In this document: positions 8,803-10,753 of the stretch, in pieces
How positions within the stretch are numbered: position 1 is the stretch's first letter
Layout: each line of letters starts with the position of its first letter
From: Craspedostauros australis
Taxonomy: Eukaryota
Assembly: GCA_030167865.1 (NCBI GenBank)
Contig: JALAGF010002472.1
Location: 1 to 43,736 of the forward strand
DNA length: 43,736 nt
Reading direction: 5' to 3'
The notes under the pieces: model-generated
What the model saw: the letters and a program-made list of their open reading frames with translations, nothing else
Database searches by the model: none
What the model was told of the DNA's origin: nothing
Translations under genes and position numbers: made by a program

Positions 8803-9342
8803 TCAAGAAGATTTATTGAATTTTTCCAATTTTGGAAGAAAATCTTCTTCAATTCTTAATCTCAAATATTCTGCGCTTATTCCGTAGTAAAGTAATTTTG
8901 GATGTTCTAAATTCATCTCTAAAGTTATATCAGGATTATATACATCGAATAGTGAATGGAGATAAGAAATTATCTCTGTAAACCCATAAGATTTAGAATT
9001 GAACTGAATATTTATTTCAGTTGATTTAGGAAAAACAACAAAAGCCGCCTCTTCTAACTTCTCTTTGCACATCCTGGCTGATCTCACATTTGAACTTCGA
9101 AGGCTAAAAAATCGTTTGAAAAGTTGGTCAATGGTAATCTTTTGACTCACAAACAAAGCTAATATTTGGATGTATTCTTTTCGACTTTCCCAAAAAATTT
9201 GATCTTCCACCAAACTAAGATAGCTAATTAATTCATCATTTTTAGTTTCATCATAATCCCGTAATGAGAGTCCTTCCTTTTGAAGGCTTTTCCTTTTTTT
9301 CAATAATTTTAAACATTTGTGGTAATCAAACTTCATTTTCAT
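8803..9342 (-). CDS. Colicin D immunity protein-like ORF179 (putative antitoxin)
   Basis: YIQILALFVSQKITIDQLFKRF and FDVYNPD...YGISAEYLR...LEKF resemble E. coli ImmD (LAKLFLASKITAIEFSER...FEPD...YEIDDNGLK...LEKF, from memory); lies 40 nt downstream of the toxin-like ORF. Confidence 0.7.
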   Translation of the reverse strand: MKMKFDYHKCLKLLKKRKSLQKEGLSLRDYDETKNDELISYLSLVEDQIFWESRKEYIQILALFVSQKITIDQLFKRFFSLRSSNVRSARMCKEKLEEAAFVVFPKSTEINIQFNSKSYGFTEIISYLHSLFDVYNPDITLEMNLEHPKLLYYGISAEYLRLRIEEDFLPKLEKFNKSS

Positions 9343-9382
9343 AATTGATTAATTTTTTATTTTAATAGCAGAACGTAAAAAT

Positions 9383-10753
9383 TTAAAATGCACCTTTACC
9401 AAGATCAGGATTATCTTGATAAAAATTTTCTCTGTATTCTTGATATTTATCTGCTCGTTCAAACATACTTTTTTCGTTTTCAGTTAGTCGAATGCTAGGA
9501 TCCTGCTCGAGTTGCTGTCGAAGAGTTTCTACTTCACGCAATTGCTGATTCCCAATGCGTGCATCCTCTGGTAGACCACTATAAAACGATTCTGTAGCCA
9601 TTTTCTCTTGTATTATTTGGCCTCTCTTTATTTCTAATTGAGCATGGTCGTATGCTCTTTCGTCTTGACTAATACCAATATTACCAGTTTTCTCAAACTT
9701 TTTAAATGCGTTGTCCGAAATGGTATAACCACTAATAAAATGATGGTCTTCATACAACATATTATTTTCAAAAGATATAATTGTTAGCGATTCAGGGTCA
9801 CCGAAATTGATTGTGGGTTCGTTTTTATTTAATGTACCCCTTTCATGAATGATTAAATTTGGCTTTGATAATAACCTTTCTAGCGCATCTTGATATTGGA
9901 AAGCAATATCCTTCGAATTTTTCTCCTTAGTGGGAATCCCAAATTCTTCAAGATGACGCAAACCTTTTTTTTCCAACTGTTTCTCTGAGTATTTATACGA
10001 ATCGCCCAAAACTTTACTCGGATATAAAGGTTCTGCTCTTCGAAGTTTAGTTTGTTTTTGAATCCATTGAGTCTCTTTGGATAATAAATTATGATTTTTA
10101 GTTAATCCAGAAGAATTTAAATTTTTTTGAGCCATCCGCAATTGAACTCTCTTTTGCATAGGTGAAAGCTCTGGTTGAGGTATAAATGAACCAAAACCAG
10201 CTGATGAAATAGAAAGCTTGATTAGGTGAATTGGTACTGGTTTTTCCAATTCACTTAAAATTCTCCAGAATGCGGGTTCTTTAATTATTGGCTTAATTAA
10301 CTCGAGTATCTGGTTTAGACGTTTGTTAATACTAACTGCGGAACCACCCGCTTTCCTTGCCTTATTTAAAAGACTTTTTAGTAATCTTGCCTGTTGTTTC
10401 TCATCCCACTCATTAGCACCTCCTTTTAATTTTAGGATATAATCTGTCATACTTGGAGGAGAATTTAAAAATCTCAAGTTGTCAGATTTAATGACACAAG
10501 AATAGGCCTTAGATGATGGAAATATCGAAGGGTTAATACTTGGTTTGATGTATCGAGATTCTGAAAAAATAACAGCAGCGACTAAAAATTCTTTTGAAAA
10601 GATAAGGACAGCAGTTTGTTTAGTTTTTCTCGTTACATAAATTACTGGATTTTTCAAAGTTCTTTTGAAATTGGATAATTGTCTAATTGCATTAACATCT
10701 TTGGTGCAGCTAAACCCCAATTCCTTTCTGTCATTGATATAGTTGATATACAT
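9383..10753 (-). CDS. ORF456 with an internal colicin D-like tRNase domain (putative toxin)
   Basis: aa 255-360 YSEKQLEKKGLRHLEEFGI...YQDALERLLS...ERGTL...FISGYTI...FEKTGNI parallels the colicin D C-terminal domain; AAGGA SD upstream. Confidence 0.78.
   Translation of the reverse strand: MYINYINDRKELGFSCTKDVNAIRQLSNFKRTLKNPVIYVTRKTKQTAVLIFSKEFLVAAVIFSESRYIKPSINPSIFPSSKAYSCVIKSDNLRFLNSPPSMTDYILKLKGGANEWDEKQQARLLKSLLNKARKAGGSAVSINKRLNQILELIKPIIKEPAFWRILSELEKPVPIHLIKLSISSAGFGSFIPQPELSPMQKRVQLRMAQKNLNSSGLTKNHNLLSKETQWIQKQTKLRRAEPLYPSKVLGDSYKYSEKQLEKKGLRHLEEFGIPTKEKNSKDIAFQYQDALERLLSKPNLIIHERGTLNKNEPTINFGDPESLTIISFENNMLYEDHHFISGYTISDNAFKKFEKTGNIGISQDERAYDHAQLEIKRGQIIQEKMATESFYSGLPEDARIGNQQLREVETLRQQLEQDPSIRLTENEKSMFERADKYQEYRENFYQDNPDLGKGAF

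Follow-up and report, generated by a model that had tools for sequence, protein, structure and literature searches.

An island with two intact genes in the plastome of Craspedostauros australis

The window, a stretch of 43,736 nucleotides of Craspedostauros australis DNA (contig JALAGF010002472.1), reads as a section of diatom-type plastome with clpC, dnaK, a long ribosomal-protein cluster and seven tRNA genes. Flanked by dnaK (10990..12825, reverse strand) on one side and by clpC (4710..7457, reverse strand) on the other are two intact open reading frames (ORFs), ORF456 and ORF179, both of which begin with ATG in the ORF list of the window. A first-pass annotation made from the sequence alone had described them as a colicin D-like tRNase toxin and its immunity protein, co-oriented and closely spaced, next to a plasmid Rep remnant in an otherwise ordinary plastome. 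The sizes, positions and spacing are as it described, and a broken Rep-like gene does adjoin the pair at 7641-8470. The parts of the two genes discussed below are the following (aa, amino acids):

9383..10753, reverse strand: ORF456, 456 aa, the putative toxin, in three parts (conserved N-terminal module, colicin D-like tRNase domain, helical tail)
10211..10753, reverse strand: N-terminal module, aa 1-181, which other family members join to unrelated C-terminal domains
9677..10036, reverse strand: colicin D-like (BECR-fold) ribonuclease domain, aa 240-359 of ORF456
9953..9955, reverse strand: codon of His267, which corresponds to His611, the general base of colicin D
9386..9667, reverse strand: conserved C-terminal helical tail, aa 363-456, with helices at 363-392, 402-417 and 425-447
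9343..9382, reverse strand: spacer of 40 nt between ORF456 and ORF179, the larger gene coming first
8803..9342, reverse strand: ORF179, 179 aa, all-alpha, putative cognate immunity protein and distant relative of ImmD and the Colicin_immun family
8818..9183, reverse strand: ImmD-like core of ORF179, aa 54-175; aa 1-53 form an extension without an ImmD counterpart

By arithmetic from base composition, an open frame of 456 codons is very unlikely to arise by chance at about 32% GC. Database searches returned 96 homologs of ORF456 (E down to 4e-162) and 94 of ORF179 (E down to 1e-81). We therefore do not regard the two frames as products of chance. The homologs of both are unnamed or called "hypothetical"; those of ORF456 are mostly 450-490 aa long, and Navicula tsukamotoi and Nitzschia dubiiformis are among the organisms that encode homologs.

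ORF456 contains a ribonuclease domain of the colicin D family

A profile built from 20 members of the ORF456 family (alignment A1) was compared with 177,635 sequences of the Protein Data Bank (PDB). The three best matches were all colicin D chains (1tfo_A, E 2.9e-6; 1v74_A, 3e-6; 1tfk_A, 3.8e-4), and the next match had an E value of 0.034. The alignment spans chain positions 2-93 (the chain being numbered 595-697) and pairs His611 of colicin D with His267 of ORF456, Lys608 with Lys263 (the same in every A1 member), and Lys610 with Arg266. The Ser-Gly-Trp motif at colicin D 677-679 is paired with Ser-Gly-Tyr at ORF456 341-343. In colicin D, His611 is the general base and tRNA-Arg is cut between positions 38 and 39, as stated in the covered part of PMC9990079. 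His267, the residue named for mutation on first inspection, thus aligns with that base. Among the 96 homologs, position 267 is a His in 76 and a Tyr in two, while two sequences are partial and 16 carry a different domain; the His is therefore kept in 76 of the 78 homologs that have the colicin D-like domain. The two Tyr-containing proteins (P0022 and P0023) are otherwise conserved in this domain and may be inactive or altered variants.

A template-free AlphaFold (AF2) model of ORF456 has predicted local distance difference test (pLDDT) values of 84-92 across most of aa 240-360, with one 10-residue block at 74. Its helices at 257-271 and 280-295 and its strands at 301-308, 312-319, 324-329 and 337-344 include the expected arrangement of an N-terminal helix packed on a four-stranded antiparallel sheet. 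Foldseek placed colicin D at all of ranks 1-5 (E 9.1e-6 to 3.4e-4, rmsd 2.3-4.2, identity 23-26%), and the isolated tRNase chains 1tfo_A, 1v74_A and 1tfk_A gave template modeling (TM) scores to the target of 0.76-0.81 (0.79-0.81 for 1tfo_A and 1tfk_A). A VIA structure search superposed model residues 242..359 on colicin D 595..697 with a Z score of 13.0 and an rmsd of 2.2 over 101 of 103 residues. In that search the colicin D entries (Z 13.0, 12.7, 12.7 and 11.2) were followed by CdiA-CT (9.3), with RelE/HigB at about 4 (3.5-4.0).

Bacterial relatives were sought with a domain-only profile (A5) made from 12 ORF456-type sequences and six shorter colicin D-like sequences described below. Among 1.84 billion sequences it found 857 cluster representatives at E≤1e-3. 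We picked 28 by hand from 150 listed matches, 16 of which are Pfam Colicin_D proteins above threshold (38-80.7 bits) with N-termini of the RHS, PT-HINT, PT-TG, PAAR, DUF6861 or Mu-F type; the other 12 are without a Pfam family. The bacterial Colicin_D polymorphic toxins were retrieved at E 7.6e-13 to 1.2e-9. On the basis of profiles and models we assign aa 240-359 of ORF456 to the colicin D family of BECR-fold ribonucleases, with the catalytic His and the neighboring basic residue kept. The colicin D-like tRNase of the first-pass annotation is thereby borne out at the level of the family, by profile homology, fold and the conserved His.

ORF456 is not itself a colicin, as only the nuclease domain is held in common. 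No counterpart of the colicin translocation or receptor-binding regions was found in ORF456, whose residues 1-213 are poorly modeled (pLDDT mostly below 50 in the N-terminal module), and structure 5ZNM, which comprises the central domain and the tRNase, aligns with the model only over 598-697. For the N-terminal module there was no lead in Pfam, and an ESM Atlas search with aa 1-170 gave no usable match. We also considered a relationship between this N-terminus and the Rep-like protein, an idea prompted by the longer N-terminus of homolog P0018, and rejected it because alignment of A1 with the Rep-like family (A6) by hhalign gave an E value of 0.26 over 11 columns. The C-terminal tail has pLDDT values of 74-92 over aa 371-450 and lower ones at both ends; its only structural matches by VIA were coiled-coil-like (Z ≤5). 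The plasmids in PLSDB gave no match to ORF456.

ORF179 is a distant member of the ImmD family

The AF2 model of ORF179 is all-alpha (pLDDT 89.6, predicted TM score 0.81). In a VIA search of 48,161 chains, which does not depend on Foldseek, ImmD (1tfk_B) ranked first with a Z score of 8.1 and superposed on residues 54..175 with an rmsd of 3.2 over 86 of 86 residues and 19% identity. The decisive evidence comes from sequences of relatives. Divergent paralogs of ORF179 in related loci match a profile of its close family (A2) at E 3e-5 to 2.5e-11, and a combined set including such paralogs (A4, 23 members) contains 14 that match the Pfam Colicin_immun family (PF09204) at E≤1. The best of these, L001:5766-6158, reaches 42.5 bits (E 1e-10), where the cut-off is 22, and covers model positions 4-88 of 88. 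The matches in the relatives begin at residues 51-58, usually about 54, which correspond to model position 4-5. When A2 was aligned by hhalign with the 12 divergent paralogs alone (A7), the probability was 99.5% (E 3.9e-22, 157 columns). Because the paralogs match PF09204 and ORF179 is homologous to the paralogs, we assign ORF179 by sequence to the ImmD family as a distant helical member that has an insert and is extended by 53 residues at its N-terminus. The proposed ImmD-like immunity gene is thus supported by transitive PF09204 membership, by ImmD ranking first in a fold search in which helical bundles can score as high by chance, and by a complex model that passed its controls (see below).

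The two genes are almost never separated

A metagenome scan returned 37 related loci, 28 of which include the 3' end of a homolog of ORF456. Directly downstream of it is an ORF179 homolog in 24 of the 28, and in three more there are at most 79 nt of room. The only locus with room and without an ORF179 homolog is L024, in which the toxin gene is frameshifted. The pair is therefore retained in 24 of the 25 loci with room, spaced by 53 nt in 15 of the 24 (range −17 to 104), and genes of the ORF456 and ORF179 types are almost never separated in these loci.

Gene content was annotated in 18 longer loci. A serine recombinase recurs (seven ORFs in 6 of the 18; Resolvase at E 7.8e-29 in L017), as does a Rep-like protein of about 500 aa, and a tyrosine recombinase was seen once. 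L001 repeats the gene order of the window with an intact Rep-like gene of 506 codons, and in L037 clpC stands beside four ImmD-like paralogs. Some ORF456 homologs are located on plastome-sized contigs of 137,860, 139,565 and 188,135 bp. A terminal overlap of 15-200 nt was found in none of the 37 loci, and therefore no locus is shown to be a complete plasmid.

ORF179 is predicted to cover the presumed active site

Residues 236-365 of ORF456 were modeled together with the whole of ORF179, alongside three controls. The complex scored 0.81, 0.81 and 0.75, and the best of the three controls scored 0.00; that level is reached by 51 of the 78 solved complexes in the benchmark for this score and by 2 of its 108 mismatched pairs. 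At least 81% of the contacts agreed between runs, and the partner had a pLDDT of at least 85. The predicted interface on ORF456 includes residues 265-267 (with Arg266 and His267), 341 and 343-349, which form the presumed active site. Complex prediction had been proposed on first inspection as a check of the pairing, and the model, with its top score and with His267 covered, speaks for it.

One N-terminal module, several C-terminal domains

Upstream of divergent ImmD-like paralogs we found six ORFs that are shorter than ORF456 and colicin D-like (A3). Their profile reaches colicin D in the PDB at E 5.9e-8, aligns with A1 at E 1.8e-5 (hhalign) and, as a hidden Markov model (HMM) run on a small ORF set, finds ORF456 of the window at E 1.2e-5. 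All six are followed by a short ImmD-like gene (131-169 aa) at a distance of −28 to 41 nt. The pairs are located as follows:

L002, 3-1054: short colicin D-like/ImmD-like pair
L003, 10023-11451: short colicin D-like/ImmD-like pair
L005, 55-1269: short colicin D-like/ImmD-like pair
L012, 250-1684: short colicin D-like/ImmD-like pair
L001, 5527-6158: short colicin D-like/ImmD-like pair
L037, 6475-7435: short colicin D-like/ImmD-like pair

One of the shorter relatives (L012:601-1206) scores 14 bits with Pfam Colicin_D, for which the cut-off is 25.

A different kind of variation is seen within the ORF456 family. By BLASTP, ORF456 is 55% identical to P0079 over aa 1-181 (E 7e-66), with nothing beyond. 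The P0079-type C-terminus, of about 230 aa, occurs in 15 of the 96 homologs and a third type in one (P0082); the homologs with alternative C-termini fall among P0078-P0096. Neither type matched a Pfam family or a PDB sequence. Genes of these types were found in no locus of the genome or viral contigs, and the 37 loci held one partial match (L002). By eye, the C-terminus of P0082 contains an HExxH-like motif.

The partial match in L002 belongs to a second recurring pair, in which an ORF of about 200 aa (cluster 7) is followed after about 25 nt by one of 140 aa from a six-member family without a Pfam match:

L003, 2785-3832: pair of ~200-aa and 140-aa ORFs
L017, 482-1529: pair of ~200-aa and 140-aa ORFs
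L002, 4500-5300: pair of ~200-aa and 140-aa ORFs
L007, 1969-3516: pair of ~200-aa and 140-aa ORFs

The cluster 7 member of L002 shows weak similarity (E 1.6e-5) to the C-terminus of the P0079 type, and the two genes may constitute a second toxin-immunity pair.

The family is thus polymorphic in two respects: one N-terminal module is joined to different C-terminal domains, and different colicin D-like domains occur with different ImmD-like partners. A constant N-terminal module, exchangeable C-termini and cognate downstream partners are a hallmark of polymorphic toxin systems. We tentatively suggest, while rating it at somewhat less than an even chance, that the plastid plasmids of pennate diatoms carry a true polymorphic toxin system in which the N-terminal module bears interchangeable warheads, among them the colicin D-like tRNase and at least two unrelated C-termini, and in which colicin D-like genes also stand alone, each toxin having its own downstream immunity gene. 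Plasmids or plastids within a eukaryotic cell would use such a system against each other, in what would be the first toxin-immunity arms race of an organelle. It would explain why such islands persist in plastomes, and it could help to determine plasmid incompatibility and which plastid lineage survives sexual reproduction.

A probable toxin-immunity cassette of plastid plasmids

We interpret ORF456 and ORF179 as a colicin D/ImmD-type toxin-immunity cassette of small pennate-diatom plasmids, here integrated in the plastome between clpC and dnaK; the support is at the level of families. For this explanation as a whole we estimate a probability of roughly 0.7. Its parts differ in strength: the two homologies, of ORF456 to colicin D and of ORF179 to ImmD, are close to certain; judged from sequences and models, the proteins quite likely make an active toxin/inhibitor pair; and a role in addiction or competition is slightly favored. 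The nuclease would cut a plastid tRNA in its anticodon loop and so block plastid translation, and ORF179 would bind over the active site and render the nuclease harmless wherever both genes are present. Because the nuclease would block translation and ORF179 would protect where both genes are, the cassette would make it costly to lose or displace the element that carries it, whether by plasmid addiction, by competition among plasmids or plastids, or by both. The window also contains a plastid tRNA-Arg(ACG) gene (39542-39617), whose product is a candidate substrate if the nuclease retains the specificity of colicin D.

Several observations weigh against this interpretation. As a single sequence, ORF456 has no match to Pfam Colicin_D at E≤10 and nothing relevant in NCBIfam or in a phmmer search of the PDB, and none of the 20 A1 members matches Colicin_D at E≤1. 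ORF179 alone likewise has no PF09204 match at E≤10 and nothing relevant in NCBIfam or by PDB phmmer; its close-family profile A2 has no PDB match at E≤10, and Foldseek found nothing for it at E≤0.001 (best E 1.7). The initial statement that each ORF independently resembles its partner in the colicin D system therefore holds for family profiles and models and fails for the single sequences. A Z score of 8.1 can be reached by chance for helical bundles, and rank 2 in that search was an unrelated FRB domain at 7.4. Thirteen of the 14 PF09204 matches are below the gathering score, at 12.7-20.6 bits, and A4 reaches ImmD in the PDB only at E 0.059-0.067, behind an unrelated TLR6 chain at 0.046. The A3 ORFs were picked by eye from those upstream of 11 paralogs, six of the 11 being included, and their presence in A5 may drive its reach to bacterial Colicin_D. 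Since solved colicin D-ImmD complexes exist, the pass of the complex model may reflect memory of them, and it indicates likeness rather than binding. The nuclease domain is internal, between the N-terminal module and the helical tail, and not C-terminal as in bacterial toxins, and both flanking modules are unexplained. The differential stability that addiction requires is presumed here, as are the expression, activity and substrate of the pair. The broken Rep-like neighbor fits a decaying island, and ratios of nonsynonymous to synonymous substitution (dN/dS) are only moderately below 1. By a rough Nei-Gojobori calculation these were 0.35-0.72 for ORF456 homologs and 0.23-0.92 for ORF179 homologs. 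Such values suggest genes that are constrained yet fast-evolving, which would suit conflict genes and is compatible also with relaxed selection in this plastome.

The last points bear on an alternative in which the pair derives from a toxin-immunity cassette and is now inert integrated plasmid DNA that has not yet acquired stop codons. Such decay would agree with the truncation of the Rep-like gene and its division into three pieces, with dN/dS values of 0.45-0.67 in comparisons that involve the window, and with an ORF456 that a gap in the linker makes about 25 aa shorter than most of its relatives; moreover, fragments and pseudogenes of ORF484 are described for other plastomes in the covered parts of PMC2873285 and PMC6608930. 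Yet both frames are fully open at about 32% GC beside a Rep-like gene that is broken, every A1-invariant residue is kept (Lys263 and Tyr343 included) along with the near-invariant His267, and the pair is selectively retained across the related loci. We consider decay unlikely.

A domesticated ribonuclease is a distinctly unlikely alternative. Here the colicin D-like domain would serve the plasmid, for example by processing RNA for replication or partition, and ORF179 would be its regulator or chaperone, with no poisoning involved. The embedding of the nuclease between two conserved modules, unlike the C-terminal placement in bacterial toxins, speaks for this idea, and on small plasmid-like contigs the ORF456 homolog is the largest ORF, its companions being a resolvase and a Rep-like gene. 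It does not account well for an N-terminal module that is also joined to unrelated C-terminal domains, or for several colicin D/ImmD-like pairs being possible on one contig, a pattern typical of conflict systems and not of a fixed housekeeping enzyme; the partner is, in addition, predicted to cover the active site.

Of the roles first proposed for the pair (addiction, plastid competition or export), export looks the least likely, and we give it very little credence. A toxin that left the plastid or the cell to act on bacteria or other diatoms, like colicins or contact-dependent toxins, would agree with the likeness of the constant N-terminal module and variable C-terminus to secreted bacterial toxins, and hydrophobic stretches, noted by eye, do open some of the shorter colicin D-like ORFs. 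Inspection of the ORF456 translation revealed no obvious N-terminal signal or membrane segment, however, no secretion genes were seen on the annotated related loci, and a protein made in the plastid must cross the four membranes of the diatom plastid. That the island is an assembly artefact or contaminant foreign to the plastome has a negligible chance: nothing speaks for it directly, though none of the contigs aligned to the island crosses into dnaK or clpC, whereas its GC content (0.31-0.33) is similar to that of the flanks (0.29-0.36), homologs are found on the plastome-sized contigs, clpC adjoins ImmD-like paralogs in L037, and plasmid insertions of this kind are known from published diatom plastomes (PMC2873285 among the sources, each covered in part).

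Comparison with known systems

The closest known system is that of colicin D (cda) and ImmD (cdi) on the E. coli ColD plasmid (1V74, 1TFO, 1TFK, 5ZNM). The diatom pair shares with it the nuclease fold and catalytic His, an ImmD-like helical inhibitor gene directly downstream on the same strand, a plasmid origin and, by prediction, placement of the inhibitor over the active site. Identity is low, at about 25% in the nuclease domain and 19% in the immunity core. In the diatom protein the domain lies inside the chain, with a helical tail of about 95 aa after it, and no counterpart of the colicin N-terminal regions was found in it; ORF179 is twice the size of ImmD, from which it differs by the 53-aa extension and the insert; and the host compartment is a eukaryotic plastid.

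Bacterial polymorphic toxins (Rhs, PAAR, PT-HINT and PT-TG proteins that end in a Colicin_D domain and have PF09204 immunity proteins) resemble the diatom genes in their constant N-terminus, exchangeable toxin domains and downstream immunity genes. No relation of the N-terminal module of the diatom proteins to Rhs, PAAR or another Pfam family was detected, no secretion system was seen, and the carriers are islands in plastomes and small, AT-rich plasmids of diatoms. Type II modules of the RelE/HigB kind have in common with the pair the BECR superfold, as seen in the low Z scores given above, and the logic of a plasmid-borne two-gene toxin/inhibitor unit. They differ in that the diatom toxin, at 456 aa, has extra modules, the inhibitor gene comes after the toxin gene, and the closest relatives are colicin D-type tRNases and not ribosome-dependent mRNases. 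A DNA-binding antitoxin domain was not detected by Pfam in ORF179 or its relatives, and the pair, with its large toxin, does not fit the RelBE/HigBA type. Yeast cytoplasmic killer plasmids, which encode zymocin gamma-toxin or PaT, provide a further parallel, in that an extrachromosomal plasmid of a eukaryote carries genes both for a tRNA anticodon nuclease and for protection from it. Those toxins have unrelated folds and are secreted to act on other cells, and their plasmids are linear, cytoplasmic and non-organellar.

Among diatom genes, ORF482/ORF484 of Cylindrotheca fusiformis plasmids pCf1/pCf2 and orf480 of Haslea silbo plasmid pHSC1 are alike in their size of about 480 aa, their pennate plasmid or plastome context and the accompanying serine recombinase. 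The ORF456 family is probably the same family; this match is by description, from size, host and recombinase context rather than sequence comparison. Such ORFs of about 480 aa were sequenced in 1992, according to the covered part of PMC2873285, and were still hypothetical in papers of 2010, 2019 and 2021 (PMC2873285 and PMC6608930 among the sources, in the parts covered). No link between diatom plasmid or plastome ORFs and colicin D or toxin-immunity systems was found in the literature searched, the scope of which excluded most subscription journals, the 1992 plasmid papers and supplements; the covered part of PMC3417536 held none either. Nor did that literature describe a toxin-immunity system of the colicin D type in any organelle. 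The molecular kind is thus known, and what is new is its place on organellar plasmids of a eukaryote, the way its domains are arranged and the polymorphic system that apparently surrounds the pair.

These assignments offer a testable molecular function for the diatom plasmid ORFs and their unannotated downstream partner, and they illustrate that "hypothetical ORFs" of organelles can conceal known domains visible only to family profiles. An active pair would mean that toxin-immunity conflict systems of the bacterial type are at work within a eukaryotic organelle. The cassette would then be a possible mechanism by which foreign plasmid DNA persists in plastomes and a possible tool for selection or containment in diatom plastid engineering.

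The Rep-like remnant and the edges of the island

The broken Rep-like gene begins about 330 nt after ORF179 and consists of three pieces, listed here together with a stem-loop:

7641..8470, reverse strand: broken Rep-like gene as a whole
8408-8470, reverse strand: piece 1, 20 codons and then a stop
8228-8392, reverse strand: piece 2, ORF54
7641-8231, reverse strand: piece 3, ORF196
10796..10834, reverse strand: stem-loop with a 16-bp stem and a 7-nt loop, a terminator-like site between dnaK and ORF456, at the island's edge

The remnant stops at about residue 330 of the intact 506-aa form in L001, which is 86% identical to ORF196. On its own, ORF196 gave nothing relevant in Pfam, NCBIfam or a phmmer search of the PDB. 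Of six family members, two matched Phage_CRI (best E 0.013) and one matched Rep_trans (E 0.03); these Pfam matches are all below threshold, and no PDB match to the family profile was below E 0.22. A promoter scan of the window returned 21 sites where 17.7 were expected and was uninformative.

Contigs from one sequencing run (X1, taken to be RNA by guess only) also touch the island. A 744-letter contig with a depth of 233 and one mismatch covers 10262-10985, which takes in the spacer between dnaK and ORF456 plus about the first 490 nt of ORF456, and has 20 non-templated T residues after 10985 on the forward strand; a second, with a depth of 3.7, covers 8717-8867 at the end of ORF179. The cover is uneven, unlike that of a plain DNA run, but the kind of run is unproven, and contigs of this sort are no evidence of transcription. 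The stem-loop at 10796-10834 is just upstream of ORF456, on the dnaK side of the island. In the Kryptoperidinium plastome, plasmid-derived regions near dnaK are reported to be bordered by palindromes, according to the covered part of PMC2873285.

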